Positions 6,884-64,000 of a DNA stretch of 64,000 nucleotides are shown here, in pieces. A model generated the notes under the pieces. The model saw only the letters and a list, made by a program, of their open reading frames with translations, had not been told where the DNA came from and ran no database searches. Source of the stretch: an uncultured Bacilli bacterium (lineage in GTDB: Bacteria > Bacillota_I > Bacilli_A > RF39 > UBA660); contig CALVVF010000001.1 in assembly GCA_944363785.1 (NCBI GenBank), positions 70,176 to 134,175 on the forward strand. The letters run 5' to 3'. The first letter of the stretch is position 1, and every line of letters starts with the position of its first letter. A program made the translations under genes and the position numbers.

Positions 6884-6898
6884 TAAAGTAGGTGTAGA

Positions 6899-9451: not shown

Positions 9452-9531
9452 TACATAGAAAAGGAATATTCATCATGAAAAGAATATTGCCTTTTTTTCC
9501 TTTTCATGTTATTTTCAAAGTGGTGAATGAG

Positions 9532-44297: not shown

Positions 44298-44513
44298 CTA
44301 CATATACTTTTCCATTGACTTCATCATCTGATTAACTTGCTTTTGACTAGGTTTTCTACCCATCTGCATCATTAATGCCTTGATCATTTCCTCATTAATT
44401 GGCGGATTCTTTTTTAAATATTTCATCATATATTTACGAGCTAAGAAAAAGCCAATTACCGCTCCAACTAATAAAACTCCAACTACTTTTAATATATCTA
44501 AAAATAATTCCAT
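44298..44513 (-). CDS. yneF: UPF0154 family membrane protein YneF
   Basis: 71 aa. [44 protein letters not shown] is the canonical YneF sequence pattern. Confidence 0.85.
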
Positions 44514-44553
44514 ATTATCATCTCCTGTACATAATATACTAGAAAATAATCAT

Positions 44554-44979: not shown

Positions 44980-45043
44980 GTATCTTTCCTCCTTCTTATT
45001 CTTATCATAGAAAAAGAAAAGGAAAAATCTTGTCGATATTTTC

Positions 45044-47029: not shown

Positions 47030-47090
47030 AATTTTAGCTCCTTCTATTTACTATTATACCACGTTTATTAGCGAAAGAAAAAGATGACTT

Positions 47091-48491
47091 TTAGTCATCG
47101 TCAAATAATTCCTCGATATCCTTCAATACATCATCTTTTTTCTTCTGTTCTTCTTGAACAATTTCTTTACTTAGATAGAATTCTTTAGTTTGTTCTAAGT
47201 CGTTTAATCTCTCTTTTTGAGAATCATCAACTTCATCAGTAACGACATCAGATATTGTTTTATCTTCGACTGCTACGTTTGTTTTTTCTTTTTCTTCCGC
47301 AACACTAGAAGAATTGGCCGTATCAACAGTAGATTGTTCATTTTCTTTAGAAGATGTCTCAGTATTTTCCTTTTTATCTTTATTCTTATTATTCTTATTT
47401 TTCTTTGATGTCTTGATATAGAAATAAATACCAAAACCACCAATTAAGAATAAAATTAAACAACCAATACTAACTAATACATATTGTAAAGTACGGTCTT
47501 CTCGACTATCTTCATGGGAGTCAGGCTTTGTAACATGACTCGTACTAGATGAAGTAGAAACGATGTTTTCTTCTTCCTCTTCAGAGCTTTCACTTTCTCT
47601 AGTTACTGTAATTTTATACTCACGTTTATTTCCGTCATTATCACTAACTGTAACAGTTACAATTGAATCTCCTACTTCTAAAGCAGTAGCTCCACTTACT
47701 GAAACACTTGCTTCACTACTAGCTGCTGCAGCCTGTACTGTAATGCTTTCTACTTCATAAGGAACCGTTAGTGTATAGTTTAATAAATCTGGGCTAAAAG
47801 CTTGATCTAAAGTATAATCATCTACACGAAGTAACTTTAAACTAAGATCAACCGGTTCTTCTTTTATAATAGTAAATTTATACCTTTCCACGTTGTTGAT
47901 AAGAACTTTAATAACGCTACCAGTCACTAAGCCACTGTCACCCGTTACTTTTAAATCAACCTTACTTTTGTCAACATTTAACGTAATAGCTTCACTAAGA
48001 TTAATCGTTCCTACATTTGCAGGAATTGTTATCGTATAATCGGTATTATTACTATTAAATGGTTTATCCAATGTCCCCACAGTCAAATTTAATGATGTGA
48101 TTTTTATATCTTCAGGAATTACTGTTACCTCGCATTGGGCAAAATAATCTCCAACATTAGCTTTAGCAGTAATTGTTGCCTTTCCTGGACTTAAGGCTGT
48201 TACTTGCCCAGTTGTTGAATCAACCACTGCAATACTTTTATCCGAACTTGACCAAGTAACATTCGTATCGTCTGTATTTGTAACTGTCGCAACAAGAGTT
48301 TCACTTGTTCCTTCGGTTAATTCCAACTGTCCCTTATTTAACGTTATTGTTATTTTTTCGGTAGCTCCTGAACCACCACCATTACTTCCACCTGTTCCTT
48401 GGCCAGGATCATTTGCCCAAACAATCCCCGGTGTCATTAAAAGTGCAATCGTACTAAAAAGTGCGATACTTTGCTTCAATTTTCTTTTCAT
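47091..48491 (-). CDS. Membrane-anchored surface protein with Big_2 and cadherin-like Ig domains (466 aa)
   Basis: Signal peptide, a Big_2-like domain (TEGTSETLVATV...GKATITA), two cadherin-like beta-sandwich-like segments, a Ser/Glu linker, one TM (LVSIGCLILFLIGGFGIYFYI) and an acidic/Lys-rich cytoplasmic tail. Confidence 0.6.
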   Translation of the reverse strand: MKRKLKQSIALFSTIALLMTPGIVWANDPGQGTGGSNGGGSGATEKITITLNKGQLELTEGTSETLVATVTNTDDTNVTWSSSDKSIAVVDSTTGQVTALSPGKATITAKANVGDYFAQCEVTVIPEDIKITSLNLTVGTLDKPFNSNNTDYTITIPANVGTINLSEAITLNVDKSKVDLKVTGDSGLVTGSVIKVLINNVERYKFTIIKEEPVDLSLKLLRVDDYTLDQAFSPDLLNYTLTVPYEVESITVQAAAASSEASVSVSGATALEVGDSIVTVTVSDNDGNKREYKITVTRESESSEEEEENIVSTSSSTSHVTKPDSHEDSREDRTLQYVLVSIGCLILFLIGGFGIYFYIKTSKKNKNNKNKDKKENTETSSKENEQSTVDTANSSSVAEEKEKTNVAVEDKTISDVVTDEVDDSQKERLNDLEQTKEFYLSKEIVQEEQKKKDDVLKDIEELFDDD

Positions 48492-48765
48492 TTTATATTC
48501 TTACTTCCCTTTCATTCTATTATATCAAGATTATAGCATAACTAATACCAAAAATAAATAGCTAAAAAAAGGCTATTGTTTAGAAACATAAAATACTTAC
48601 TATTGAACTCCTTTGATTTTCTTACTTTTTTTGCTTGATAGTGAAAAAAATAAGTAACTAATATATTCTATACAGTCGTTGATGTAAACAAGCATTTTAT
48701 CTTTCATTTTTTCGAGGTAAAAGACTATTTCTATGCTATGATGAGAATAAAGGAGTTGTTTAAAT

Positions 48766-49701
48766 ATGAATTTTAATCCCTATCAACAATTTAAAGTAAA
48801 TAAACTTTTAGAAACTGATTTTAAAAAAGTATATGATCAAATTCCAGAAAGTTTTAAATCTAATTTTTATTTTCAATATTTTTTGTGTGAGCTAGCTTCA
48901 TTAGAAGAAAAAATTGACCAAGCCCAACTTAGAAAACTTAGTTTATGTAAGCAAGAACCTAATTGTGAAGCTGTTTTTCACATCGATGAAGAGGAAAATA
49001 GATTATTGACTACCGCTAACTATTTGAAGATAAATCCAAATCTTATCGATAAAGAAAAGATGAAAGTAGTCCTATATCCAGATGGAACTCTTTCTTTTAA
49101 TTGGGTACTCGCTTTTGCGTTTGATTTAAAAAAATATGTATCAACTACTGATGATACCCTTTATCAATTAACGATGCGAGAAAGTAAAGATAAAAATTAC
49201 CTACTAACAGAATATATAATTTCTGATGGTTCATCGTATCAATTAGAGATGATATCTGTGTTTGATCAGAATAATAATGAAGTTTATCGCCACGACCAAA
49301 TGAGAAACAAGAAGACAAACGAAATTCTCATGCAAGAAGAATTTTCATTAGTTCCTCAAGAAAATATGCCATTCGCTTCGGATTTCTTTGACGATGACAC
49401 TATTGTACCTCTTTTCTATTTACAAAATACAAATGACTACTATATAGGAAAATGTACAGTAAATTCAAATACTAGATATGTGGTCTGCTTCAAACCAAAT
49501 GAACTTGCAGGTAATGCCTATAACAAAACATTCGAGAGTATCACTAAATTTGGAGTACCTAATTCTAATTTGTTTTATACCCTAGATAAAGAACAAAAAC
49601 CATACGTAAAAGAAATTGAAGAAAACGACTATTACCAATTACTCAAGAAAAGAAATAACGATGTAAAACGTTTAAAAAAAGCATCTCATTATGGAAAGTG
49701 A
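48766..49701 (+). CDS. Hypothetical protein (311 aa)
   Basis: ORF only. No motif recognised. Confidence 0.35.
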   Translation: MNFNPYQQFKVNKLLETDFKKVYDQIPESFKSNFYFQYFLCELASLEEKIDQAQLRKLSLCKQEPNCEAVFHIDEEENRLLTTANYLKINPNLIDKEKMKVVLYPDGTLSFNWVLAFAFDLKKYVSTTDDTLYQLTMRESKDKNYLLTEYIISDGSSYQLEMISVFDQNNNEVYRHDQMRNKKTNEILMQEEFSLVPQENMPFASDFFDDDTIVPLFYLQNTNDYYIGKCTVNSNTRYVVCFKPNELAGNAYNKTFESITKFGVPNSNLFYTLDKEQKPYVKEIEENDYYQLLKKRNNDVKRLKKASHYGK

Positions 49702-49709
49702 GATGTTTT

Positions 49710-50561
49710 CTATTGGTTTAAGATTATTTTTTTCTGCGATTTTGATGTATTTTCATCTAAAACAGAGGGATGAAGAGATGTATCATTCATAAAATCAAAA
49801 ACAGTATGATCCAAAAAGTAAGCAATTGGTAACTTTCGATCAAATGTTTCTTCTACTTCTTGATGTTTTTCTATGCGTAATTGGTTTAACCTTGCTTGAT
49901 ATTGTTGCTTTAATTCAGAATTTTTGATTTCTTCAATGACTTCTTTTATCAACGTACATTTATTCTCAACTAACGCATGGCGGAACTTTCCAATAGTAAT
50001 ATCTGATTGTTGTAACCTTTTTAATACTTCTTCATGAGTAGTTGGACAAACTTGTTGCCAATGTTGAGGAAACTGAAAATCGTTACAATATAATAAATAT
50101 AATAAAGAAGACATTTCCATATAAGTATAGATAATTTCTGCGATTTTCCGAAAGTTTTCATCACAATTAGGATTATTCCTCATGACAGAAACATCGTTAT
50201 ATTTTTCTTTTATGTCTTCTACTAATCTAGGGTAAATTAAATTTTCTAATGGAACAGTAGTAAAAATATCGGCTTGTAGTTTCTTTTTAAATATCATGTC
50301 ATGACCCATAGAAAAAAATAGATAATCTTGTAAAATTCCCCAAGCTGATTCAATTGGATAAGGATTACCTTGTTGCATTACTGCTTTTAGTTGAACTAAA
50401 TAGTCATCATAACTTAAACCATCAAGGATTTCACCAAAGAAAATAGTATCCTTATGAATAGTAAAATATTCCCGTTCTAACTCATTATTTTTTTGTCTAA
50501 TTCTATTTACTTGATCATCATAAATGAATTTAATTACTTGGTCTAAAGATTTATTTTCCAT
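49710..50561 (-). CDS. Hypothetical protein (283 aa)
   Basis: ORF only. No motif recognised. Confidence 0.35.
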   Translation of the reverse strand: MENKSLDQVIKFIYDDQVNRIRQKNNELEREYFTIHKDTIFFGEILDGLSYDDYLVQLKAVMQQGNPYPIESAWGILQDYLFFSMGHDMIFKKKLQADIFTTVPLENLIYPRLVEDIKEKYNDVSVMRNNPNCDENFRKIAEIIYTYMEMSSLLYLLYCNDFQFPQHWQQVCPTTHEEVLKRLQQSDITIGKFRHALVENKCTLIKEVIEEIKNSELKQQYQARLNQLRIEKHQEVEETFDRKLPIAYFLDHTVFDFMNDTSLHPSVLDENTSKSQKKIILNQ

Positions 50562-51082
50562 GCATTACTCCCTCTTTCTTATATACTGATTTTTATTTTA
50601 ATTGTTTTTTTATCCGTCCTCCATATTAATTTTAGTCGGAATAATATATTTAACCCTTACTTATGAAAAATTAAATTGGTAAGTACTTTCATTCTAACTA
50701 ACTCCTGGTTAAATATAGAGACTTTCTAAATCTTCTTTAACAAGATGGTGGTATTGTTTTCAACAATTAAATTATTTTCTTCATAAATATGTGTCTTTGT
50801 CTTGTTGCTTCCAATTTCAATAATGGCATTCTTTTCTTCTTACCTGTTTCCTCCTACTGTTGATACAATCATTATAACACAATTTCTTACTTTTAAAGTG
50901 TTGAATAAAACTTACACGAATAACAACTATCCCTTTTCACCACAAATAAATGATTGTCTTTGGTCAACTAATAGTTATATTTTCTAATAAATATCTCACA
51001 AATAATTCGTTATTTATTCAGTGAAAAAGTAGTTTTACCTATTGGTTTATAGTATAATACTAGCAAAGGAAGGAAGATAACA

Positions 51083-52186
51083 ATGAGCGAATACCCTTCA
51101 GCATTGCCGAATCTATCGGAGTTCAAGGAATTGACAATAAAGGATATTTCAAAAGTAGATGATTATCTGTTCGTCGAATTTGAATGTGGTCAAAAATTAC
51201 TCATAGATCAAGAACGAGTGTATGATATTTCGGATTATGATAGTTTATCAGAAGTTTTTCTACTGGATGGGAGACTTTGTGCTGCTTTATGGAAAAAGCA
51301 TACTTTGTGTGCCGTCGATTTAGATTCAAAAGAAGTGTTATTAGAAGATGAAAAAGCATACCAAATTAGTCCAATTGAAAGCAGATGTTTAAAAGTGATG
51401 ATGAAGATTGGGGGTGGAGAAGATAAAATCTATGATACAGTGAGGAAAGCCTATCTACCCTCTCCTCTCGAATACAGGTTTGAGACGACACTAGGAAATG
51501 AATTATATGTATTTAAAGAAAAAAATTTAAAACCAGGAAGTAGTTTTTATGATGATAGAAGAATGGTTATTCATACGAACGGGAAAGTTCTTTTAAAAGA
51601 TATTCAAGGGTGGATTGAATATTATGATCATCATTTGATTATCAAAAAAGGAAATGGGTTGGAAGTGGTTACGATTCATCCGGATTTGACAACGACTATT
51701 CAAGAATACAAACAAAATGATTCTATTATCGCAAAACCTACTTATTATCAAGGAAATATTCTAATCCTAGAAAAAGGAAAAGTTAAACTTTATTCTTTAG
51801 ATTCAGAACTAATCAAAGAATATTCTCTTAAAGAGTTAACTGATGTCGTCGATTATGAACTTATCTCCCCTATTTTAAAGCTATGTGTACCATATGTAGA
51901 AAAGGGGAAACGGGTAAATCGTCATCTATTTTTAGATTTAGAGTCGGGAGAATTTATTTCACATCTTAGAATTGAAGGTTATCCTTATTGGTCTCCTACT
52001 ACATTCGTTAGACAAGATAGTCTATCTGATAGTATTGACTACCATTTTTATCGCTTAGAAAATAATCATTTTCTTTCCCCTATTCAAATAAAGGCTAACT
52101 CCTATCAATCTCTTGATGCAACGAAAGAATGCCTGTTTTTACTAGAAGTTCAAGAAGAAAACCAAATAAAGAAAAAAATTTCTTAA
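51083..52186 (+). CDS. Hypothetical protein (367 aa)
   Basis: AAGGAAGGAAG RBS precedes the ATG. No motif recognised. Confidence 0.4.
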   Translation: MSEYPSALPNLSEFKELTIKDISKVDDYLFVEFECGQKLLIDQERVYDISDYDSLSEVFLLDGRLCAALWKKHTLCAVDLDSKEVLLEDEKAYQISPIESRCLKVMMKIGGGEDKIYDTVRKAYLPSPLEYRFETTLGNELYVFKEKNLKPGSSFYDDRRMVIHTNGKVLLKDIQGWIEYYDHHLIIKKGNGLEVVTIHPDLTTTIQEYKQNDSIIAKPTYYQGNILILEKGKVKLYSLDSELIKEYSLKELTDVVDYELISPILKLCVPYVEKGKRVNRHLFLDLESGEFISHLRIEGYPYWSPTTFVRQDSLSDSIDYHFYRLENNHFLSPIQIKANSYQSLDATKECLFLLEVQEENQIKKKIS

Positions 52187-52244
52187 TACCGAAACTGGAT
52201 TAGTTCAAGATGTTGACTATGATTTTATTTATTTTGGTCCATCT

Positions 52245-52748
52245 TTGTCTTATGGTTATGGGGTAAAACTAGATCGTGAAAAGATGGATTTCTTTGATGA
52301 AAATTTAAATATCCTTATTTCTGATTTTCCATATTCCAAATTTTATTTAAATGTCTACCCTAGAGAATTTGCCTATGAGATTGTCGGCGACTATGTAATT
52401 ATTCAAAAGTATTATAGTTTAGAATTTGATCGCGGAAAGCACCGAGTCATTCTCTATAAAGCGGATAATACGACAATTTTAGATTCCTTTAGTCACCGTC
52501 TTTATCCAATTGGAGACTTTATCCAAATTGTTCATGATAGGAGAAGTGAGTTTTTGAACACAGTAACGGGAGAAATCAAGCCACTAAGTATTTCTGTACC
52601 ACTTACTAATATGAAGAATGGGAAAATAGATATTGACAAGTTAAATCAGCCAAAACTACTCTTTTCAGCCAACACCCCTCTGTTCCCTGTTTTGGAGACT
52701 AACGGAAATCCGGAAGAAAACATCAAACAAAAATGTAAAAAACTCTAA
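52245..52748 (+). CDS. Hypothetical protein (167 aa)
   Basis: ORF only. Composition resembles the upstream gene. Confidence 0.35.
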   Translation: MSYGYGVKLDREKMDFFDENLNILISDFPYSKFYLNVYPREFAYEIVGDYVIIQKYYSLEFDRGKHRVILYKADNTTILDSFSHRLYPIGDFIQIVHDRRSEFLNTVTGEIKPLSISVPLTNMKNGKIDIDKLNQPKLLFSANTPLFPVLETNGNPEENIKQKCKKL

Positions 52749-52787
52749 CTAAACACTATGGTTAGAGTTTTTGATTAGATAACAAGT

Positions 52788-54347
52788 TTATTTTAACTTT
52801 TTTTGGTAAGCACTTATTGCTTCCTCTAATTCTTTATCTGACTCTTCTTTAGCAAATATACCCGTCAAGTTTAAAGTTTCCAGTACACTATTCATATTAT
52901 AATTAGGTAAATTCGTAGTAATTTCTATCATCGCTTGATCAATCGCTTGATTCTTGTTTTCCAAAGTTTTTTCTACTAAGTAATCCGCAATTAAATATTG
53001 ATAACCATTTAATATATCTATTCCATCAATCAAAAAAGCATTTATATAATCATCACACTCTCCATCTACTTCTTTATCATAATCTAAAGGTTCTATTTCT
53101 AAAACAAATGAATCTCTGATTGAAATCTGATAATCTTCAGAAAGTTTCAATAGTTCTTTTTTAGCTTCAAGCATCGCTTCTACTTTTCTTTTTGAAGAAG
53201 CAATTTTTTCTTCACGACGAATTGGTTTCCCTCTACCATAGCTGTTGATATCCAAAAACAAATCAGCTAATGTACAATATAGATCATAATTATTTTTTTG
53301 ACGAGATAATAAATATTCCACTACTTCAGGATCATATCCCCTAGTAATTAAATATTGACCGGCTACTCTTTCATAATAAATAGATGGGTATTCCAATAGG
53401 GAATATGGACCTTGTCCTTTTTGGAGCGATATATAATGAGCAAATTCATGAACTAAATTCAAGAATGTTTTAGCATGATCATAATCGGTTATTTTTAACT
53501 TATAAGCTTGATCTTCTTGATCGAAATAACAGGCAGAATGATTTTTACCATCTTCACCTACTTTTTCATAAATAATATAGTTCTTTTCTTTTAAAGAAAA
53601 ATATAACGAGATCCATTCTTCTGGCACATGAATTTGTTTCAAGAAATCGATAAGTAAATTTTCTGCTTGAGCTGAAGATAATTGAGGAATAGATATTTCT
53701 TTATCTTGATTATCCTCCGAAAGGAAAGACTTAACGAAATTCGTACGCATTTTATATAATATATCATCCATGGTAGTAAAAAAGTCAAGATCATCCTCTT
53801 TAAACATATCTACAGTAAGCTCTAGTAGATAATTATAAACATTAAAACGCTCTGTCTGTTGTAACCAATCAAATAGTTGTTCCTGATTGTTGCGTGTTTT
53901 TAAAAAGGTAGTTAACTCAGTAAATTGATGTTTATTGTCAAAATATTTGAGCGCAATTAGTGTATATAAATCATCTTCTGCATGGTTCGGAAGTAAAAGA
54001 AAAGGGGAAGCTTCTTCATTGACTAAAAGCTTTTTAGACAATAGTTGAATATATAGTGCTGGCATAAGTTCTGGTTGATTAAAGATAGCAAGATATTCTG
54101 GATTACTGATTAGTCGTTCTACTACATAATCAAACAAATCATCGAATTGTTTGACAATATAAGTATTGTTGTCCTCTACTTTTATTTTATCAGGACTGTG
54201 ATGATCGATAATTATTGTCGAATCAACAGAAGTATTAAACAACAATCGATTTGTTTTGATCATGTTAATTATATTTTCTATTTCTGCTTCCTCTTCTTCA
54301 GGATAATATAGATTTATTTTATCAATAGTTTTTAATTTCATTGTCAT
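52788..54347 (-). CDS. HExxH-motif putative zinc metallopeptidase-like protein (519 aa)
   Basis: LVHEFAHYIS (HExxH) in a largely helical protein. AAAGGAG RBS precedes ATG 54347. Immediately downstream of the sigma gene on the same strand. Confidence 0.4.
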   Translation of the reverse strand: MTMKLKTIDKINLYYPEEEEAEIENIINMIKTNRLLFNTSVDSTIIIDHHSPDKIKVEDNNTYIVKQFDDLFDYVVERLISNPEYLAIFNQPELMPALYIQLLSKKLLVNEEASPFLLLPNHAEDDLYTLIALKYFDNKHQFTELTTFLKTRNNQEQLFDWLQQTERFNVYNYLLELTVDMFKEDDLDFFTTMDDILYKMRTNFVKSFLSEDNQDKEISIPQLSSAQAENLLIDFLKQIHVPEEWISLYFSLKEKNYIIYEKVGEDGKNHSACYFDQEDQAYKLKITDYDHAKTFLNLVHEFAHYISLQKGQGPYSLLEYPSIYYERVAGQYLITRGYDPEVVEYLLSRQKNNYDLYCTLADLFLDINSYGRGKPIRREEKIASSKRKVEAMLEAKKELLKLSEDYQISIRDSFVLEIEPLDYDKEVDGECDDYINAFLIDGIDILNGYQYLIADYLVEKTLENKNQAIDQAMIEITTNLPNYNMNSVLETLNLTGIFAKEESDKELEEAISAYQKKLK

Positions 54348-54471
54348 AGCAACTCCTTTTTGGTCCGTATTATACTCCCATTTTTTGAAAAAGGTAAGAA
54401 AGCAAAAAAACATAATCATTTTCCTTCATACAGCGAACAAAGATGGAATAGTTAAACGACTAATCTTTTCA

Positions 54472-56106
54472 TTATGACAAAGTTTTTTTCTTCTGTTTTT
54501 CCTTATCCTTACAACAAGAATGATTTTTGTATTCTGTAGAGCTATTAACTTTTTCCTCTAAGAGATTAATATTATAGTTTAAGAGTAGTGATTCTTTTTC
54601 TTCCTGAGTAAGATGAGAAGCAATAAAGTTAAGCTCTTCTTCACTATAAAACTTAAACAATTGAGAAATTAGTTTCAATTTCTCTGTACTTTCTTTGATA
54701 GATAAAACCCCATTTAATTTTTCATCCGTAATTTTTTCTAAAGTATCGAGAGTTTTTTTGTTCACATTTGGTTTTTGATATAGTGTCCTACAAATTTTAA
54801 TATTTTCTACTGCGCGTTCTGGATTATCTAAATAAAATGCCAATCGATCAATGTTTTTTAATCGTCTTAATTTCTTAATGGCCCCAGCTTCTATTTGATA
54901 TACTCGTTGGCCACTTAGATGGAGCATATCTCCAATTTGATAAGCAGAAAGCGGATCATCGCCACCAAAGCCATATTTCAAACGAATAATTTCTCTTTCC
55001 TTATTATTTAGGTTACTATTTTCTAATAATTGTGTTACCTCGTTTTGTAAAGTGGCAGTGATTAGTTTACCCTCCATTCCTTCTTCTGGTATTGAAACAA
55101 AATCTTCTAATGTCGAATCTCCCTGACCATCAACAAAATTTTGCATGCTAATGGTATCAGATTGCAACATATGTAATTTCGCCGCTTCATCTAAAGAAAT
55201 CTCTAATTTCTGAGCAATTTCATCTAAAGTGGGCTCTCTATTTAATTTTTCTTGTAAAATAGCTTGTGCTTTTCTATATTTATCAATCTTTTGACCAAAA
55301 TAAACAGAAATACGAATATTTTTGGCCTTATTGGATAAAGCCCTTCTAATGGCCTGATGAATAGAAGGAACAGCATAAGACGACAAACGATACCCTTTTT
55401 CTACATCAAAATGATCTATAGCCTTCATTAAACCAATATTTCCTTCTTGAATTAAATCCATAAAAGATAGTCCACAATCAAGATAGTGTTTAGCAATACT
55501 AATCACTAATCTTAAGTTTTTCTCGATTAATATTTTTCTAGCTTCTTGATTACCGTCTCGAAGCATATAAGCCAATTCTTTCTCTTCCTCTGGAGTTAAC
55601 AATACTTTATCTAACGACAAAATATATGTTCTCAACAAATCCGTTTTATCATCAAGTTCAGGAACTACTTCTTTTTCTCTAAAATCTTCATTTTCCTGAA
55701 TAGTATCCATTTTGATACCATGAGATAGACAATAACAATCAACGAGAGATAAAATCACACTATTTTTTAACTTGTCACTACTTTTATTATTTTTTTGTGG
55801 AGCATTATTCGTTTCTACTACTATCTTTAAAAGAGAATTTAAAAGAGAATTACATTCTAGTACCAATTCCCACATATCAGGAGCGGGAGTAAGCTTAATC
55901 TCCTCAAAAAAAGCAGCTAGTTTTTCTAACTCTTTTAAAGCAGCTGGGTAAGAAGAAGCTTCACGCAAATTTTTATTTATATAGCGACAAACAATAGTTA
56001 AAAATAACTTAGGGTTTTCCATATTCGTTTTTATGTAGTCACAAAGCCTCTTTTTCATATTGGCAATAAAGAGCTCTTCAAAATTAGTTTTCTTTGAAGA
56101 TTTCAT
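54472..56106 (-). CDS. Extended, divergent SigA-like (sigma-70 family) sigma factor, 544 aa
   Basis: Regions 1.2-2.4 (LTPEEEKELAYMLRDGNQEARKILIEKNLRLVISIAKHY...DLIQEGNIGLMKAIDHFDVEKGYRLSSY), region 3 (IRISVYF...LDEIAQKLEIS) and region 4.2 (LSAYQIGDMLHLSGQRVYQIEAGAIKKLRR). About 170-aa N-terminal and ~130-aa C-terminal extensions. Region 2.3 reads AVPSIHQA in place of the WWIRQA tryptophans. Confidence 0.7.
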   Translation of the reverse strand: MKSSKKTNFEELFIANMKKRLCDYIKTNMENPKLFLTIVCRYINKNLREASSYPAALKELEKLAAFFEEIKLTPAPDMWELVLECNSLLNSLLKIVVETNNAPQKNNKSSDKLKNSVILSLVDCYCLSHGIKMDTIQENEDFREKEVVPELDDKTDLLRTYILSLDKVLLTPEEEKELAYMLRDGNQEARKILIEKNLRLVISIAKHYLDCGLSFMDLIQEGNIGLMKAIDHFDVEKGYRLSSYAVPSIHQAIRRALSNKAKNIRISVYFGQKIDKYRKAQAILQEKLNREPTLDEIAQKLEISLDEAAKLHMLQSDTISMQNFVDGQGDSTLEDFVSIPEEGMEGKLITATLQNEVTQLLENSNLNNKEREIIRLKYGFGGDDPLSAYQIGDMLHLSGQRVYQIEAGAIKKLRRLKNIDRLAFYLDNPERAVENIKICRTLYQKPNVNKKTLDTLEKITDEKLNGVLSIKESTEKLKLISQLFKFYSEEELNFIASHLTQEEKESLLLNYNINLLEEKVNSSTEYKNHSCCKDKEKQKKKTLS

Positions 56107-56118
56107 TGCTTTTATACT

Positions 56119-56277
56119 TCATTTTATCGCTTGATAGGTAAGCAGTTCGTATTGTTTCTGATCTATATCCACTGTAAGATAATCATATTTTTTATTGATC
56201 TTTTTGATCGTCGGTAATAGATATTGATATAATTGCTCGGCGGTATAAGTACTCATTTTTTCTATGTCAAACTTCAT
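56119..56277 (-). CDS. Candidate 52-aa micro-ORF upstream of the sigma gene (MKFDIEKMSTYTAEQLYQYLLPTIKKINKKYDYLTVDIDQKQYELLTYQAIK)
   Basis: GAGGGGA RBS 6 nt before the ATG. The stop TGA lies 12 nt upstream of the sigma ATG. Not in the track because it is under the length cutoff. Confidence 0.35.
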   Translation of the reverse strand: MKFDIEKMSTYTAEQLYQYLLPTIKKINKKYDYLTVDIDQKQYELLTYQAIK

Positions 56278-56364
56278 TAGTATCCCCTCTTCAATCGTAA
56301 ATTTTATTGATTATTCTATGTTGTCCACCATAATATTTTTTAATATAAGTTCTTATTCCAAGCG

Positions 56365-56391
56365 AAAAATCAATCTTGGGGATTGATTTTT
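56365..56391. promoter_or_regulatory. Perfect inverted repeat AAAAATCAATC-N5-GATTGATTTTT between the 56460 gene and the sigma operon
   Basis: 11-bp arms. Could be a terminator stem for the upstream minus-strand gene or an operator. Confidence 0.4.
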
Positions 56392-56459
56392 TCCATACTT
56401 AAACCATATTTATTATGGTAAAACAATAGCCAATATACCTAGATAGTTAACTATCTTTC

Positions 56460-57365
56460 TTAAAAAATAGTTTTCTTTAGTACTGGCCCTTTTTCTTCTT
56501 CTACCCACATCTTCTCTGGACTCATAAATTCGTTATTTTGTGATAAGAAAAGTGTATTTTTTGAGTCTATTGAATTAGCTTTTTGATTTTGAAGAAGACG
56601 ATCTTGCCTAATCTCACCTATAACCTTTTGTAACTTTTCATCATGACCAAAGTTAAACGGATATACAATGAATTTTTTATCTTGAGCATCCTCTTCACTC
56701 ATTGTTTCATAAGGACAAATAGCATCCTTGTTTTCTTCGGCTAAAATAACTCGATCAACGCGACTATTCGGATTAGAAATACCGATAATCGCAACATTTC
56801 TTCCATCCACTTTACCAATACGATAAGAACCAGAAGTTACTGCATTTAGTTTCTTTACTTCTTCTAATGTATAAGCAAGAGGAACTAATTTTTCATGTTC
56901 AATTAAAAATAAGCTCTGATCTACAATAATTGGATCTCTTCCATTAAAGCCAACCAATTTTTCATCTTCACTTTTTCTATGAGCAAAAAAAACGGCACAA
57001 ACTAGTTGTTGATGTTTTTCTACCATTCTTGCATATTGTTCTTTTTCTTCAGCTGTCATCGGAATAAGTGTTTCTTGTACTTCTTTATCTTCTTCAATCG
57101 CTTTATTCAATTTTGCACTTACCATCATAGCATTTAATAAATTAACACCTGGTATAAATAACAAAAGGACTTTTAATCCATGGTTATTTCCTTTTTTCTT
57201 CATTTCTTCTGCTTGCTTCTTTTGTAAAATGGTTAACGCATTTATATCGAATTTATATCCTTTTTTCATAGAATTTAAAATAATCTTCTCTGCCGTACCA
57301 AACACTATTTTTTTACATCCTATAATCGTAGCAATTTCTACAATTATCCCTAAAAATATATACAT
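56460..57365 (-). CDS. Hypothetical membrane-anchored protein (301 aa)
   Basis: GGAGAGAAGGAG RBS precedes ATG 57365. N-terminal TM helix. Confidence 0.4.
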   Translation of the reverse strand: MYIFLGIIVEIATIIGCKKIVFGTAEKIILNSMKKGYKFDINALTILQKKQAEEMKKKGNNHGLKVLLLFIPGVNLLNAMMVSAKLNKAIEEDKEVQETLIPMTAEEKEQYARMVEKHQQLVCAVFFAHRKSEDEKLVGFNGRDPIIVDQSLFLIEHEKLVPLAYTLEEVKKLNAVTSGSYRIGKVDGRNVAIIGISNPNSRVDRVILAEENKDAICPYETMSEEDAQDKKFIVYPFNFGHDEKLQKVIGEIRQDRLLQNQKANSIDSKNTLFLSQNNEFMSPEKMWVEEEKGPVLKKTIF

Positions 57366-57596
57366 ATTAACTCCTTCTCTCCTAATAATTCTGTCGATTT
57401 GACAACTAGTATAACACAATATGTCATAAATAACTAATATTTTCTAATTTTTATAGTACAAATCTCTTTCATCGCACTTTTTAAAACCAATAATTTGTTT
57501 CCTTTTTAAACATTATCTTTTCTTAGTATTATAGCTAACGAATTAGCTAAAGAAAAAGTAGCAATATGTTCAAACATATTCATGCCACTTTGTAAG

Positions 57597-57806
57597 TTAA
57601 GATAAAGGTTTTATTTTTCTTTTTAAAATAGGACCTACTTCAGAATTTTGTTTTAAAGAAACATCTTCTTCATTTTCCATTATACTCTGTAATTTTGAAA
57701 TAAGACTATCGTATTTGTGATCATTGTTGGCAATTAATGCCTTTACTTTCTCATTCAAATCAATTACTACTGTACTATAAGCATTGCCGAATGCACTAAC
57801 ATTCAT
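57597..57806 (-). CDS. Small ORF (69 aa) in frame with and downstream of the endonuclease-like gene
   Basis: Same reading frame as 57936..58691. The 43 intervening codons carry no stop. Possibly the C-terminal part of a gene broken by one TAA. Confidence 0.3.
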   Translation of the reverse strand: MNVSAFGNAYSTVVIDLNEKVKALIANNDHKYDSLISKLQSIMENEEDVSLKQNSEVGPILKRKIKPLS

Positions 57807-57935
57807 AAAATTAACAATAGAATTTGGCGCAATTTCACAGATTCCTTTATAAACAAATTCCCATAAACTTTCGCCTTTTAAATGGTCAAAATCATATTAT
57901 ACATATTTACCGTTATCCGTCAAGTCCTTATAAAT

Positions 57936-58691
57936 TTAGTGTTCATATAAATACACTCGCTCGAAAAGTTCCCCTACTTTAGATTTTTTGATTTGAAATT
58001 TCATACTTTGACTAGTATTTTTACCAAAGTTTTTACTACTCTTAGAAAATGTTAAAATTAATGTTGCTTTTACATATCCATGAGTTAAACAATGAATAAA
58101 TGCATCCATTCCTTTATAGCGATAACATTCTAACTTATAATACCTAAAGAATAAATCATCCTCCATCTTTTTCCTACTTACATAAAATAGGGCTAATTTA
58201 CTTAACTTGACTCGCATTCTTTGTTCTATAGAATCAAAATAGATAAATGCTCTATCCTCTATAAAATTCATATCGATATCATAGATCCTTATTAAAATTC
58301 TTTTTTGATCATGGTCAATTAGTAATTCGAAATAATATCTGCCGGATACTAATACCTTTTGATTTATTCTTAAAAAGACGATCAATTTGCGATATTCAGG
58401 AAACTCTTTATCTCTTTCTCCATAAGTTTCTAAAAGATAGTTACTTTCAAATAAATTTGGCCCATCAAAAGCTAGAGAAAACAAGCTGATATCATATCCA
58501 CTATATCGTCGTGTCGTTTTTATTTCGATACCTTCATAATCAGGGAAAAACATACTGTCTGGTTTTTTTCCAAGATAATTCTCTAAAGTTAAACCGGCTG
58601 CGTTATACAAATTACGACTGACACTAGGAATGTATCCTCGGCGATTCAATATTAAAAATTCTTCTATTATGTTTTGAAATTCTGTTTCCAT
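57936..58691 (-). CDS. MvaI/BcnI-like restriction endonuclease family protein (251 aa), possibly disrupted
   Basis: N-terminal RGYIPSVSRNLYNAAGLTLENYLGKKPDSMFFPDYEGIEIKTTRR resembles the MvaI/BcnI (GDxGExELKxxR) catalytic N-terminus. The stop TAA at 57936-57938 is followed by an open in-frame stretch continuing into ORF 57597..57806. Confidence 0.45.
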   Translation of the reverse strand: METEFQNIIEEFLILNRRGYIPSVSRNLYNAAGLTLENYLGKKPDSMFFPDYEGIEIKTTRRYSGYDISLFSLAFDGPNLFESNYLLETYGERDKEFPEYRKLIVFLRINQKVLVSGRYYFELLIDHDQKRILIRIYDIDMNFIEDRAFIYFDSIEQRMRVKLSKLALFYVSRKKMEDDLFFRYYKLECYRYKGMDAFIHCLTHGYVKATLILTFSKSSKNFGKNTSQSMKFQIKKSKVGELFERVYLYEH

Positions 58692-58794
58692 AATCCACCT
58701 CTTTTTTTGGTAGACTATCTTAACAGTTGGTTAGAGTATAATTTGTCGTTTCAAGTCGACAGCTTGAACTATAATAATCAGGACGGTCATAGGT

Positions 58795-58822
58795 ACGAAA
58801 AAAAGACCCGTAAAGGTCTTTT
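58795..58822 (-). terminator. Rho-independent terminator downstream of the tRNA pair
   Basis: On the minus strand: AAAGACC-TTTACG-GGTCTTT followed by T7. Confidence 0.7.
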
Positions 58823-58832
58823 AATTCAATAT

Positions 58833-58917
58833 ATGGTGCGGGTAACAGGAGTTGAACCTGCAAACCTTACGGTGCTAGATCCTAAGTCTAGTGCGTCTGC
58901 CAATTCCGCCATACCCG
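58833..58917 (-). tRNA. tRNA-Leu (anticodon UAG), 85 nt with long variable arm, CCA encoded
   Basis: Minus-strand sequence GCGGGTATGGCGGAATTGGCAGACGCACTAGACTTAGGATCTAGC...GGTTCAACTCCTGTTACCCGCACCA. Perfect anticodon stem CTAGA/TCTAG with loop CTTAGGA. T-loop TTCAACT. Confidence 0.85.
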
Positions 58918-58925
58918 CATATCGC

Positions 58926-59002
58926 ATGGTGGACCCTATAGGACTCGAACCTATGACCGATCGGTTATGAGCCGACTACTCTAACCAACTGAGTTAAGGG
59001 TC
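58926..59002 (-). tRNA. tRNA with CAU anticodon; acceptor and anticodon arms resemble Bacillus tRNA-Ile2 (lysidine) rather than tRNA-Met/fMet
   Basis: GGACCCTTAACTCAGTTGGTTAGAGTAGTCGGCTCATAACCGATCGGTCATAGGTTCGAGTCCTATAGGGTCCACCA. 77 nt. CCA encoded. Confidence 0.8.
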
Positions 59003-59068
59003 CAATCAATGACTTCTTAATCATATCATATTCACGAATGAGATGCAAGATATTTTTGATTAATTTTT

Positions 59069-59491
59069 TTACTTATTCAACATATTCAATAAATTAACCT
59101 TAAACATATCTTTTTCTGGATTACTTTTAGAAATCATCACGCCTTTATAAGTGGATAATTCAGCTCGATGTCCCTCATCTAATATGCCCTCTGGTGTAAT
59201 ATTCGTTAAAAAAATAACATGCTTATTCTCATAAACTGTATAATGCAAACGCATCACACCATGAACTTTTTGGAACAACTCATCAGTTGGCAATTCTAAC
59301 TCATAAGATTTAGTATTTTCTTTCTTATTTTCCGTTGTTAGCTTACCCAAAAAATTACCATCACGTAAAGCCGGATAATAATTAAACATCAATTTCTTAT
59401 AAGCCAACATGTTATACTTACGAACTGATCTTTCTTTTTTCCGGAATTCATTTTCATCCAAATATTCAAATATATAGGTCTGTTTCATCAT
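59069..59491 (-). CDS. Hypothetical protein (140 aa), weak RelE/Gp49-like C-terminal resemblance
   Basis: MRLHYTVYENKHVIFLTNI resembles the RelE/ParE-fold toxin C-termini. No antitoxin-like partner is adjacent. Confidence 0.3.
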   Translation of the reverse strand: MMKQTYIFEYLDENEFRKKERSVRKYNMLAYKKLMFNYYPALRDGNFLGKLTTENKKENTKSYELELPTDELFQKVHGVMRLHYTVYENKHVIFLTNITPEGILDEGHRAELSTYKGVMISKSNPEKDMFKVNLLNMLNK

Positions 59492-59618
59492 ATTCAACCC
59501 CAATCCCCTGAAAATCCTTGACCCCCAATAGTACAAGGTATGCTCAATATTATCATAAAATAACTAAAATTGCAAACTTTTCGTAAAAAAAATGTACAAA
59601 AAAAGACCTATTTTGTTA

Positions 59619-61379
59619 CTATAAGTCTTCTTTTACACTTTTCTTTACTTCGATACCTAATTCATCCAACTGTTTTTTATCTACTTGATTAGGGGCTTCA
59701 CTCATCAAACAAGTAGCGCTTGCTGTCTTAGGGAAAGCAACGACATCACGGATATTATCTGTACCGACTAAAATCATAATTAAGCGCTCTAAGCCAATCC
59801 CTACTCCACAATGTGGTGGAGCACCATATTGGAACGCATCTAGGAAAAAGCCAAATCTTTTCTTGGCATCCTCATGGGTCATTCCGATTGCTTCAAACAC
59901 CTTTTCTTGTAATTCTTCTTCATGAATACGTACTGATCCACTTAACAATTCGTATCCATTTAAAACCAAGTCATAAGCCCTAGAATAGCAATTTTCTTTA
60001 TCAGTTAACAATTTATCGATATCTTCTTTCTTAGGTGAAGTAAACGGATGATGAGCAGCCACATATCTTTTTTCTTCTTCACTGTACTCAAACATTGGGA
60101 AATCAGTGACCCATAAAAAGTTATATTTATTCTCATCGATAAGACCTAACTCATGTCCAAGTTTTAAGCGAAGAGCACCTAAAGCTGTGCAGGCAATATT
60201 CTTTTGATCAGCAATAATGAAAATAGTATCTTCTTCTGTAATTGCCAACTGATCTTTTAATTGCTTTTTCTCATCATCGCTCAATACCTTCGCAATCGAG
60301 CCTGTAAATTCTTGATCTTTATACTTCAAAAAAGCAAGTGCTTTAGCTTGATAAACTTTTACAAAATCAGTTAGCTTATCGATATCTTTACGCGAATATT
60401 TACTAGCTGTATCATGAGCAACAATTGCTCGAATTACTCCACCTTTAGCGATTACATCTTTAAAAATTTGAAACTCGGTATGATCGAAAACATTGGTAAT
60501 ATCTTGTAATTCCATGCCGAAGCGAGTATCTGGCTTATCACTTCCGTAACGATCAATACAACTATTATAAGTTAAACGAGGAAACTTCTCTAAATGAACT
60601 TGCTTCAACTCTTTAAAAATCTCACCCATTAATCCTTCGGTAACTTCCCAAATATCTTCTTCTTCCGCAAAACTCATTTCAATATCGATTTGGGTAAATT
60701 CTGGTTGTCTATCTGCTCTTAAGTCTTCATCTCGGAAACATCTGGCAATTTGGAAATATTTTTCCATACCACCAATCATCAATAATTGCTTATAAAGTTG
60801 AGGCGACTGAGGTAAAGCGTAAAAACTTCCCTTACTAACCCTACTAGGGACTAAATAATCACGAGCTCCCTCAGGAGTAGACTTACATAAAATAGGTGTC
60901 TCTACTTCAACAAAACCTAATTTACTTAAATAATTTCTAGCAATTAAAGTCACTTGACTTCGAACCATTAAATTGTGTTGAATAACCGGTCTTCTTAAAT
61001 CCAAATAACGGTATTTTAATCTCGTATCTTCCAAAGCCGTTGTATCATCCGTAATTTCAAAAGGAACTTCTTTTGCGGTATTCACAATAGAAAGCTCACT
61101 CACTTCTACTTCAATATCTCCGGTTGATAAATGAGGGTTTTTACTTTCTCTTTCAACGATTTTTCCTTTTACCCAAATAATATACTCACTCTTTATACTA
61201 CTAGCTAGCTCATAGATACTATCTTCGGGGCGAATAACTAATTGGATAATCCCACTACGGTCACGAAGATCGATGAAAATTAAGCCTCCTAAATTTCTCT
61301 TTTTTTGAACCCAACCTTCAAGTTCGACAACTTCTCCGACATTCGCAAGATGAAAAACTGTATTTTCATACTTCTTCAT
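59619..61379 (-). CDS. aspS: Aspartate--tRNA ligase
   Basis: 586 aa. OB-fold N-terminus. Class II motifs (FRDEDLRADRQPEFTQID, GGMEKYFQIARCFRDE, GLGLERL). Confidence 0.95.
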   Translation of the reverse strand: MKKYENTVFHLANVGEVVELEGWVQKKRNLGGLIFIDLRDRSGIIQLVIRPEDSIYELASSIKSEYIIWVKGKIVERESKNPHLSTGDIEVEVSELSIVNTAKEVPFEITDDTTALEDTRLKYRYLDLRRPVIQHNLMVRSQVTLIARNYLSKLGFVEVETPILCKSTPEGARDYLVPSRVSKGSFYALPQSPQLYKQLLMIGGMEKYFQIARCFRDEDLRADRQPEFTQIDIEMSFAEEEDIWEVTEGLMGEIFKELKQVHLEKFPRLTYNSCIDRYGSDKPDTRFGMELQDITNVFDHTEFQIFKDVIAKGGVIRAIVAHDTASKYSRKDIDKLTDFVKVYQAKALAFLKYKDQEFTGSIAKVLSDDEKKQLKDQLAITEEDTIFIIADQKNIACTALGALRLKLGHELGLIDENKYNFLWVTDFPMFEYSEEEKRYVAAHHPFTSPKKEDIDKLLTDKENCYSRAYDLVLNGYELLSGSVRIHEEELQEKVFEAIGMTHEDAKKRFGFFLDAFQYGAPPHCGVGIGLERLIMILVGTDNIRDVVAFPKTASATCLMSEAPNQVDKKQLDELGIEVKKSVKEDL

Positions 61380-61394
61380 ATTTCTTCTTACCTC

Positions 61395-62753
61395 CTAAAA
61401 ATCTATATCGTCTTCTTCATGATCTGTATGGCAATGATCACAGCCGCAATCACCGCAATCACATTCATCACTATGTCCATCTAAAATAGATATCTCTTCA
61501 TCCAAATAATAAAGAATATAATCTAGTTCTACTTTTTCTTCCTTTTTTGTTTGATTATTTTTAATCTGAATTCTATTTTCTTTTAAATCTTCGTCATTTA
61601 AAATAATGAAAAACTTACTGTGTAAGCGATCAGCCTGTTTAAACTGAGCTTTTAATGATCGATTTAGATAATCAGTTTCTACACTAAACCCACTCATTCT
61701 AAGTTCTTGAACTAAGGTAGTCGCATAATCTTTTTCGGTTTCAGATACATACATGACAAACGCATCAATACCCTCTTCGATAGGTAGTTGAATATTTTCT
61801 TTTTCGATAGCTAACATCAAGCGCCCAAGCCCCATCGCAAAGCCTACGGCAGGAACTTCCATACCTCCAAGTTCTTTAACTAAATTGTTATAGCGACCAC
61901 CGCCACCTAAAACATTCTGACTACCGAAGCCCTCTATATCCGCTTCAATTTCAAAAACAGTATGATCATAATAATCAAGACCTCTTACAATACTTGGATT
62001 TTCTACATATTCAATATCTAACAAATCTAGATATTTCTTAACTTCTTGAAAATGTTTCTTACTTTTTTCATTTAGATAATCTGTAATCTTAGGAGCTTTT
62101 TTCATAATCTCGTTGTCATGATCGATTTTACAATCTAATATCCGAAGAGGATTTTTTTCTAAACGAGTTTGACAATCTTCACAAAATTCACCAATATGAG
62201 GTCGAATGTATTCAATTAATGCCTCACGATAACGATCTCTTGATTCTTTATCACCTAAGGTGTTTAAGTTTACTTTAATGCCTTTTAATCCCACTAAACG
62301 GTAGATATTAACCGCTAATGAAATAACTTCCGCATCCAACATCGGATCTTCTGAACCAAGTGCCTCAATACCAAATTGTGTAAGTTCTCTATCTCTTCCC
62401 GATTGTGGTCGTTCATAACGATACATCGTTCCATTATAATATAATTTAATTGGTTGATTACTATCGCCATACATTTTATTTTCGATATACGCTCTAACGA
62501 CTCCTGCCGTTCCTTCTGGTCTTAAAGTGATATTTCTATCCCCTTTGTCTTTAAAATCATACATCTCTTTTGTGACAATATCGGTTTGTTCACCAATTCC
62601 ACGATGATATAATTCACTCGCTTCAAATATTGGTGTACGAATATACTCATAGTGATATTTCTGACATACCGAATCAATTAAATTAGAGATATATTGCCAT
62701 TTTTTTGCTTCTAAACCATAAATATCGTGACATCCTTTTTGTCTATTAATCAT
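61395..62753 (-). CDS. hisS: Histidine--tRNA ligase with unusual Cys/His-rich acidic C-terminal tail
   Basis: Class II HisRS motifs (RPEGTAGV, GGGRYD, GFAMGLGRL). The C-terminus ends ...DGHSDECDCGDCGCDHCHTDHEEDDIDF. AAAGGGTGAAG RBS precedes ATG 62753. Confidence 0.9.
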   Translation of the reverse strand: MINRQKGCHDIYGLEAKKWQYISNLIDSVCQKYHYEYIRTPIFEASELYHRGIGEQTDIVTKEMYDFKDKGDRNITLRPEGTAGVVRAYIENKMYGDSNQPIKLYYNGTMYRYERPQSGRDRELTQFGIEALGSEDPMLDAEVISLAVNIYRLVGLKGIKVNLNTLGDKESRDRYREALIEYIRPHIGEFCEDCQTRLEKNPLRILDCKIDHDNEIMKKAPKITDYLNEKSKKHFQEVKKYLDLLDIEYVENPSIVRGLDYYDHTVFEIEADIEGFGSQNVLGGGGRYNNLVKELGGMEVPAVGFAMGLGRLMLAIEKENIQLPIEEGIDAFVMYVSETEKDYATTLVQELRMSGFSVETDYLNRSLKAQFKQADRLHSKFFIILNDEDLKENRIQIKNNQTKKEEKVELDYILYYLDEEISILDGHSDECDCGDCGCDHCHTDHEEDDIDF

Positions 62754-63000
62754 TTTCTTCACCCTTTCTAAAATAAAAAAAGGTACCACCCAAAGGACGT
62801 TTAAGTAAACGTGGTGCCACCTTATTTTCTTCTTTATTCCTTTAACGCAGGATTACGTTTCTCTTATGAAAAAGTGTCTTCAGTAACTTTTTATTAGGTA
62901 TTTCCACCAACATATACCCTCTCTGTAAATAAAACAGCTTACTTACTCTTCTTTTCAAGAATATATGACTAGTTTACACTATTTTTTTTATTTTAGCAAG
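62754..63000 (-). promoter_or_regulatory. Candidate T-box leader of hisS-aspS with sigma-A promoter
   Basis: On the minus strand: promoter TTGCTA-N17-TGtTAAACT (62971-62999); leader GAAGAGUAAG (Stem I base-like); AGAGAGGG; specifier-like GAA-GAC-A (Asp) overlapping CAC (His); T-box core GGGUGGUACC followed by U7 about 20 nt before the AUG. The terminator helix is non-canonical. Confidence 0.45.
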
Positions 63001-63043
63001 TAAATTTCTAGTAGACAAAGAAAAAATAGCAATAATGCTATTT

Positions 63044-63769: not shown

Positions 63770-64000
63770 TTAAATTCACTCCTTACTTTATTTTATTTTA
63801 GTATCTAGAAAAGTATGATACTAATCCATCGATACTAGTCAAATGATAACTTCCATCTTGATAAATATAACCCAATTTTATATAAGAATAATCTTTATCC
63901 TCATGAGTTTCAGTTTGTTCGTTAAGACGATCTTGATATTCTACTTGATAACTATAGTTTGCTTTCGCATTAACTACGAGTACTCCCTCATCTAATTCAA

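Follow-up and report, generated by a model that had tools for sequence, protein, structure and literature searches.

How should a short open reading frame (ORF) with a strong ribosome-binding site (RBS) be read when a long ORF without one follows in the same frame? This question is raised by a locus in a 64,000-nt stretch of DNA, hereafter the window, from an uncultured Bacilli bacterium (GenBank assembly GCA_944363785.1, contig CALVVF010000001.1, positions 70,176 to 134,175). A preliminary description, made from the letters of the window alone, had reported here a 544-aa sigma factor resembling SigA but lacking the tryptophans of region 2.3, a 52-aa micro-ORF upstream of it and an HExxH protein downstream. 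In our analysis it is practically certain that the 52-aa ORF and the 544-aa ORF are a single gene split by a nonsense mutation. We further consider it probable that this gene of 601 codons encodes an accessory, SigA-derived alternative sigma factor, present in the window as a nonsense allele. All coordinates are positions within the window, and the sigma, 52-aa and HExxH ORFs all lie on its minus strand.

One gene split by a stop codon

The 52-aa ORF and the sigma ORF share one frame and are divided by a TGA and four codons (translation of 54472..56400: '...LTYQAIK*SIKAMKSSKK...'); the ATG of the long ORF follows 12 nt past the end of the short one. A Shine-Dalgarno motif (GAGGGG) is found 7 nt 5' of codon 1, whereas no comparable purine-rich motif precedes the internal ATG at 56104..56106. 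An intact allele exists as well. The protein P0201, encoded in L096 and L097, two assemblies of the same species, is 601 aa long, falls into the same 90%-identity cluster as the window protein, and consists of the 52-aa ORF, a glycine, 'SIKA' and the 544-aa ORF. In a base-by-base comparison, the sole difference at the stop is position 56121, which is T in the window and G in L096; according to our model, a G to T change turned Gly53 (GGA) into TGA, leaving a 52-aa stub that would keep the good RBS and a 544-aa remainder that has none. The intact allele of another strain proves the one-gene reading for the window. L001 and L002, though different from the window at other sites, carry the TGA too; the codon thus occurs on two single-nucleotide polymorphism (SNP) backgrounds and is therefore not a sequencing error.

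The homologs show the same continuity. With a profile hidden Markov model (HMM) built from 123 N-terminal domains of the family, the query excluded, the 52-aa piece occupies profile positions 1-50 (E 4e-12), while positions 57-192 are covered by the beginning of the 544-aa ORF (E 4.6e-39). The N-termini of the nearest homologs (P0002, P0003, P0024 and others; 500-885 aa) match the 52-aa sequence, and tblastn places the peptide on the first 49 codons of P0002 in the locus L003 (E 4e-6). When the first 170 residues of the 544-aa ORF are used as the query, the match begins about 50-70 residues into nearly all of the 147 homologs. A structure prediction of the short product together with the sigma factor had been proposed as a check on the micro-ORF; in the AlphaFold 2 (AF2) model, a single helix (residues 40-60) crosses codon 53 and runs through the stop, and the 52-aa piece is part of the same domain.

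Two other interpretations were rejected. Decoding of TGA as glycine (code 25), tryptophan (code 4) or selenocysteine is ruled out by stop usage, by ORF continuity and by the GGA allele: the 55 ORFs of at least 120 aa plus the 52-aa ORF terminate at TAA (33), TAG (18) or TGA (5), four ORFs of at least 120 aa other than ours end at TGA, and ORFs are long and unbroken under table 11. Nor is the 52-aa ORF an independent leader peptide or small gene, being in the same frame and fused to the sigma sequence in the intact allele and all homologs. The micro-ORF of the preliminary description therefore keeps its strong RBS and its position 12 nt before the ATG, but it is a severed N-terminus and no separate gene. 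More generally, a short ORF with a strong RBS that has a same-frame long ORF without RBS behind it should be read as one interrupted gene.

Domain architecture of the sigma factor

Regions 2, 3 and 4 of the 544-aa ORF all exceed the Pfam gathering scores, which places the protein in the sigma-70 family. The match to Sigma70_r1_2 (E 0.017) stays below the cutoff, so that the regions 1.2 to 4.2 originally outlined are recovered by HMM at significant scores for regions 2, 3 and 4 but not for region 1.2. Residues 155-427 align with phmmer to solved structures of SigA from C. difficile, mycobacteria, B. subtilis and others (E down to 6.5e-49), with 31-38% identity over 260 residues. In this alignment, 'SSYAVPSIHQAIRRA' stands opposite 'STYATWWIRQAITRA' of SigA, and the tryptophan dyad corresponds to Pro247-Ser248 of the 544-aa ORF, which bears out the reported replacement of the region 2.3 tryptophans. 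Further downstream, 'IRISVYF' pairs with 'IRIPVHM' of SigA. The core-binding motif of region 2.2 (DLIQEGNIGLMKA) and the finger pattern of region 3.2 are both retained.

The N-terminal extension had been given as about 170 aa; it amounts to about 225 aa, since the 52-aa piece is part of the protein. AF2 models an all-helical domain at residues 10-190 of the 601-aa protein with a pLDDT of 75-90. This N-domain is basic (pI 9.0), and Pfam yields no match to region 1.1 (PF03979) in the window sigma. No Pfam, NCBIfam, PHROG or PADLOC model matched the N-domain, and a fold search of the PDB with the sigma model returned sigma cores only, with nothing for the N-domain. A degenerate second sigma-2 domain was also considered for this part of the protein and rejected as unsupported (hhalign P = 0.14, probability 0.4%).

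At the other end, an extension past region 4.2 is confirmed, with 117 aa instead of the estimated 130 or so. It is modelled at low confidence; alignments of homologs show a family motif Y-x-DNP, followed by a degenerate L-x3-E-x6-RYG-like stretch. Extra region-4-like repeats in this tail were rejected: only weak Sigma70_r4_2 matches (E 0.007-0.04) occur in two longer homologs, and none in the window protein. In the tails of those homologs, the matches may be taken as a hint of region-4-like repeats. We would describe the full 601-aa protein as a basic, all-helical N-domain of about 190 aa, an acidic linker, regions 1.2 to 4.2 and the 117-aa tail. The features of the locus are listed in Table 1.

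A scan for promoters and terminators found nothing above the shuffled expectation. Between the sigma gene and the adjacent 319-aa gene, we noticed an AT-rich hairpin (AAAAATCAATC-cccaa-GATTGATTTTT) with a T-run (56363..56392, minus strand), which looks like a terminator; the sigma gene would then be served by a promoter of its own. The scan demands G+C-rich stems and therefore did not call this hairpin.

Table 1. Features of the sigma locus and the adjacent HExxH gene.
Feature	Coordinates	Strand	Basis
Complete sigma gene, 601 codons, in-frame TGA at codon 53	54472..56277	-	Frame continuous but for one stop; intact allele P0201
Shine-Dalgarno (AGAGGGGA) of the true start codon 56275..56277	56284..56291	-	Direct reading
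52-aa ORF, residues 1-52 of the sigma N-terminal domain	56119..56277	-	Family HMM, tblastn
Nonsense codon TGA; GGA (Gly53) in the intact allele; G to T at 56121	56119..56121	-	Base-by-base comparison with L096
544-aa ORF 3' of the stop, residues 58-601 of the full protein	54472..56106	-	
Family-specific all-helical N-terminal domain, residues 1-190 of 601 aa, pI 9.0	55708..56277	-	AF2 and family matches
Sigma-70 region 2, core-binding motif DLIQEGNIGLMKA intact	55324..55530	-	Pfam PF04542, 7.4e-20
Pro-Ser codons (CCT TCT) at the W433/W434 melting-dyad position	55363..55368	-	Alignment to solved SigA structures
Sigma-70 region 3	55096..55290	-	Pfam PF04539, 1.1e-10
Sigma-70 region 4	54865..55014	-	Pfam PF04545, 4.8e-12
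Region 4 recognition helix SGQRVYQIE, R584G/E585Q/R588Y (E. coli numbering)	54889..54915	-	Residue census
117-aa C-terminal tail past region 4.2 (residues 428-544 of the 544-aa ORF)	54475..54825	-	Alignments to homologs
HExxH gene, 519 aa from Met25 of the longest ORF	52788..54347	-	AAAGGAG RBS before the ATG at 54347

Class of the sigma factor

The top NCBIfam models for the window sigma are RpoD, RpoS and a cyanobacterial RpoD-type model with 200-211 bits, all far under their cutoffs. The RpoD/SigA equivalogs are not reached (NF004208, 211 vs 555 bits; NF006666, 195 vs 572; TIGR02393, 202 vs 354), and neither are the SigB/F/G models (TIGR02980, 118.8 vs 234 bits; SigG, 111.7 vs 372). With RpoD/SigA as the top matches in both NCBIfam and the PDB, one might think of a housekeeping sigA with a mis-called start. 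Against this speak scores below 40% of the RpoD equivalog cutoffs (as for NF004208 and NF006666), the missing tryptophan dyad, a segregating nonsense allele and the absence of the gene from the syntenic locus of a sister species (see below); moreover, a family member in the locus L094 adjoins a separate, shorter SigA-like gene. This explanation can practically be dismissed. The protein is a SigA-like (group 1/2-like) sigma-70 protein and not the housekeeping sigA; on this point the scores below the equivalog cutoffs and the gap in the sister species agree with the preliminary description.

With the group 1/2 sigmas (SigA/RpoD, RpoS, cyanobacterial SigB-E), the window sigma shares the order of regions 1.2, 2, 3 and 4, an identical core-binding motif in region 2.2 and the finger of region 3.2. 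It differs from them in that a basic helical domain of about 190 aa replaces the acidic region 1.1, a 117-aa tail is added, W433/W434 (E. coli numbering, also used below) are changed to Pro-Ser, the substitutions H455Y, R584G, E585Q and R588Y are present, and the gene is dispensable. The likeness to SigF, SigG and SigB is local: 'GLMKAIDHFDV...YAVPMI' in clostridial SigG corresponds to 'GLMKAIDHFDV...YAVPSI' in the window, with proline at W433 in both. Past 'YAVPSI', however, the window sigma is SigA-like (IHQAIRRAL...IRISVYF); it is also twice as long and has no anti-sigma or anti-anti-sigma neighbor. MzaA of the MZA anti-phage system is likewise a long protein which combines a C-terminal sigma-70 module with a large non-sigma N-terminal part. 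Here the window sigma scores only a quarter of the curated NCBIfam cutoff (195.9 vs 800 bits), the match (PADLOC, 4e-36) lies mainly within the sigma module, and the models of MZA components find no match among the nine neighboring ORFs scanned.

A family of N-terminally extended sigma factors

At E<=1e-3, the N-domain is matched by 147 cluster representatives (50% identity), whose lengths have a median of about 614 aa and reach 1347 aa; the family size of at least 147 clusters is a lower bound. Protein lengths in the family span 500-1350 aa. One member is deposited in GenBank as 'sigma-70 family RNA polymerase sigma factor [Firmicutes bacterium]' (MBE6148730.1). By its sequence, the window sigma belongs to an unnamed and undescribed family of N-terminally extended, SigA-like sigmas from uncultivated low-GC gut Bacilli. 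The host of the window is itself an uncultivated member of the Bacilli and is related to 'Ca. Alloscybalousia'; its AspRS shares 87% identity with the enzyme of 'Ca. Scybalousia (now Alloscybalousia) intestinigallinarum'. The scan of genome contigs detected no close ortholog of the sigma, only clostridial SigG/SigE and other sigma loci with at most 36% identity. Phage and plasmid collections contain no match to the N-domain, and the best 80 viral-contig matches (IMG/VR) cover the sigma core only.

Family members are stand-alone chromosomal genes amid housekeeping genes, such as those for RNase Y and CdaA (L090), aspS and infC (L093), or gatCAB and aspS (L181); in L003, the neighbors are a two-component system and an insertion sequence element. 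No partner gene is common to the member loci L003, L090, L093, L094 and L181. In L094, from an uncultivated Firmicute, the member P0025 (614 aa, 8001..9845) is located directly 3' of a 453-aa SigA-like gene (6558..7919), which itself reaches 289 bits against the RpoD cutoff of 572. Lineages like this one may also have unusually divergent principal sigmas.

The tryptophan dyad and DNA-contact residues

The loss of the dyad was surveyed in the 132 family members with a recognizable sigma region 2. W433 is kept in 78 of them; in the other 54 it is replaced by Tyr, His, Phe, Pro, Cys and others. W434 is kept in 120 of 132. Both tryptophans are lost in about ten members, and one of these, P0317, has Pro-Ser as well. 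The supposedly 'invariant' first tryptophan of the dyad is thus freely exchanged in this sizeable, unannotated family, whose members offer naturally occurring variants with which to ask to what extent a group-1-like scaffold needs the dyad for melting. Outside the family, a clostridial SigG (NF006071, 450 bits vs a cutoff of 372) reads '...GLMKAIDHFDVTQNVKFSTYAVPMIIGEIRR', with 'STYAVPMIIGEI' at the dyad site, where the window sigma reads 'GLMKAIDHFDVEKGYRLSSYAVPSIHQAIRR'. To judge from this comparison, a functional group-3 sigma normally has proline at the first position of the dyad.

The literature bears on the dyad in two ways. Group-2 sigmas keep it, and its substitution in SigA severely lowers activity (PMC6411747). 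Yet the melting residues are not conserved in group-3 and extracytoplasmic function (ECF) sigmas, which still initiate; ECF sigmas without the dyad unwind DNA via other residues, probably less efficiently (PMC6411747). The preliminary description had proposed that the protein binds without melting or acts as a decoy. Because SigG has proline at the site, and because of the published findings on group-3 and ECF sigmas, the absence of the two tryptophans is no evidence for a non-melting decoy, and the idea found no specific support in our analysis. In its full form, it assumes a sigma-like competitor on core RNA polymerase (RNAP) or promoter DNA which works together with a micro-ORF peptide and an HExxH protease. 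The intact region 2.2 motif, combined with family-rare residues at the tryptophan dyad and at three -35-contact positions, would suit such a role, as would the effect of dyad substitutions in SigA. But the micro-ORF belongs to the sigma gene, the HExxH gene and the sigma are not co-inherited (see below), functional SigG carries Pro-Met at the same positions, region 1.2 and the sigma finger (3.2) are retained as for a real initiation factor, and overall divergence is unexceptional. A decoy is therefore very improbable.

Several residues of the window sigma are rare in the family, i.e. W434S (2/132), R436H (2/132), R584G (2/129) and R588Y (1/129); further changes are T440R, P453S, H455Y and E585Q. 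Over the 55 positions conserved in at least 80% of members, the window sigma departs from the consensus at 11 (20%), compared with a family median of 10%, and ranks 25 of 124. Measured in this way it is on the divergent side of the family, with a divergence that appears moderate rather than exceptional. We read the divergent residues either as altered promoter specificity with weak melting or as early decay, two options which sequence cannot separate.

For the intact protein we propose that it would bind core RNAP by region 2.2, the sigma finger and region 4. It probably reads non-canonical promoters, because the dyad is replaced by a SigF/G-like Pro-Ser, R436, T440, P453 and H455 are changed, and the -35 helix carries R584G, E585Q and R588Y. 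Its melting would probably be weaker than that of SigA, as in group-3 and ECF sigmas. That the intact allele is active as a sigma factor, and on which promoters, is what we infer from these residues.

An accessory gene

The corresponding locus of a sister species (L085) is collinear with the window, comprising an MvaI remnant, a 69-aa gene, the 319-aa gene, the HExxH gene, a 554-aa gene, a 311-aa gene, a surface protein and tkt; the tkt product is 85% and the HExxH protein 58% identical to those of the window. Between the 319-aa gene and the HExxH gene, however, L085 has an unrelated 180-aa ORF and no trace of the sigma. Homology breaks off at about 56460 and 54375 of the window, which delimits a discrete 2.1-kb segment made up of the sigma gene and its upstream region. 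The same sister-species arrangement recurs in L098-L100, 3' of hisS-aspS-tRNA-MvaI. Since the sigma is absent from L085 and its nonsense allele segregates, it has no housekeeping role and can be dispensed with; the gene is accessory. Our model for the locus would thus combine an allele that is polymorphic in the population with a gene that is missing in the sister species.

Genes for tRNA-Leu(TAG) and tRNA-Met(CAT) (58834..59003, minus strand) border the variable block of 48.7-58.8 kb. A tRNA-adjacent integrated island or prophage was considered and rejected: there is no integrase among the ORFs, no att-like repeat, and no phage or plasmid match to the N-domain. We see no evidence for a recently integrated island at this tRNA border.

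The absence from the sister species also bears on a further explanation, namely that the entire gene is a decaying pseudogene, the 'intact' allele included, whose function was lost before the stop arose. Consistent with this are the deviation at conserved positions, which is twice the family median, the commonness of the nonsense allele, and the neighboring 554-aa gene, which is broken too in some strains. On the other hand, at least one strain has kept the frame of 601 codons open in an AT-rich genome prone to chance stops, the Pfam domains score about as high as in intact homologs, and the core-binding and sigma-finger motifs are kept. Taken together, we regard decay of the gene as a whole as quite unlikely.

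Fate of the nonsense allele

What remains of the sigma in the window strain depends on translation around codon 53. The chances are somewhat better than even, in our estimate, that the window strain carries a null or near-null allele of a real alternative sigma; the most likely state of the allele would be null or strongly attenuated. The 52-aa stub would be translated from its good RBS, while at most a trickle of protein could be made beyond it, either truncated via reinitiation at the ATG 12 nt downstream or full-length via UGA readthrough.

Such a trickle could itself be the point, i.e. readthrough or reinitiation could yield a small, regulated amount of sigma from an attenuated but functional gene. 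The TGA allele persists on two SNP backgrounds and in several assemblies, an in-frame ATG lies four codons past the stop, TGA is the rarest stop codon (5/56), and many bacterial in-frame stops are conserved under purifying selection (PMC7918605). Nevertheless, the internal ATG has no Shine-Dalgarno motif, the stop falls within a predicted helix of a folded domain in which a start at residue 58 would cost three helices, the site is free of stops in the intact allele and in 123/123 homologs used, and the gene is dispensable in the sister species. We consider regulated attenuation rather unlikely.

Several points weigh against the interpretation of the window gene as a null allele of a functional alternative sigma. 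In-frame stops in bacteria are not always inactivating (PMC7918605). The nonsense allele is found on two haplotypes, so it has persisted and need not be a null allele. The rare DNA-contact residues (W434S, R584G, R588Y) could equally mean lost DNA binding or ongoing decay. Finally, the SNPs among strains in the sigma gene (three synonymous, one non-synonymous, one nonsense) are too few to gauge selection.

Compared with L001 alone, the sigma gene differs by two synonymous changes and one non-synonymous change. Among three near-identical strains, 5 of the 16 variable sites in 44471..64000 lie within the 1.8-kb sigma gene, where about 1.5 would be expected by length; in the other genes of this interval, 9/9 SNPs are non-synonymous, numbers too small to interpret.

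A more far-reaching view can be formulated, which we hold to be improbable: the family may be an unrecognized second lineage of 'principal-like' sigmas in uncultivated gut Bacilli, with the N-domain as a new mode of promoter or RNAP engagement, and its member in the window may compete for core RNAP while melting poorly, its nonsense polymorphism serving as an on/off switch at the level of the population.

The HExxH neighbor

The HExxH ORF reported downstream of the sigma exists, but the two figures given for it do not belong together. The longest ORF has 543 aa (52788..54419, minus strand) and leaves a 52-nt gap to the sigma ORF, whereas from the RBS-supported start (ATG 54347) the product is 519 aa long and the gap widens to about 124 nt. 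Most homologs lack the first 22 residues of the longest ORF, which are disordered. A TATAAT is found about 20 nt further upstream of the RBS.

The HExxH family comprises 78 members of about 500 aa. Residues H324, E325, F326, H328, E343, P345 and E350 are invariant, corresponding to HEFxH...E-x-P-S-x3-E, with HEFAH encoded at 53436..53450. No match to the family was obtained in Pfam, NCBIfam, PADLOC or a PDB profile search. The AlphaFold model (pLDDT 84, pTM 0.80) has a PepF-like fold, which links the protein to oligoendopeptidase F/M3B by fold comparison alone; it differs from these enzymes in being only about 10% identical to its structural matches, in a distinct beta-rich N-terminal part and in giving no match to Pfam Peptidase_M3. 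From the model, the protein is best described as a divergent PepF/M3-like cytoplasmic metallopeptidase.

A functional triplet of sigma, micro-ORF and HExxH protein, as suggested previously, finds no backing in the search for orthologs, which reveals no co-occurrence. Homologs of the HExxH protein in L086-L089 have no sigma neighbor, the protein is present without the sigma in L085, and sigma homologs elsewhere (L003, L090, L093, L094, L181) have no HExxH neighbor. Since it is not co-inherited with the sigma, the HExxH protein is not a functional partner of the sigma; it is an independent, putative PepF-like peptidase.

Other genes of the variable block

The neighborhood, initially characterized as unannotatable, is indeed a variable accessory stretch, but annotation is possible for the PepF-like fold and for a type II restriction endonuclease of the MvaI/BcnI family (57936..58691, minus strand; Pfam 1.4e-25), which has no methyltransferase gene alongside. 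The endonuclease gene is reduced to a 43-codon remnant in L085 and intact in L098 and L100. The 554-aa gene, of unassigned function (51083..52748, plus strand), is unbroken in L001, whereas the window and L096/L097 carry one A more in an A7 run (about 52172..52178), which divides it into ORFs of 367 aa and 167 aa. This could be a second strain-variable break within the block, a phase switch at the homopolymer, or an artifact of the assembly.

At the edge of the variable block, a 466-aa surface protein (47091..48491, minus strand) contains Big_2 and cadherin-like domains, a C-terminal transmembrane segment and an acidic/basic tail. It is 58% identical in the sister species, compared with 85% for the adjacent transketolase. 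The hisS-aspS operon is preceded by a T-box leader (Rfam RF00230, 94 bits) at 62790..62962 on the minus strand.

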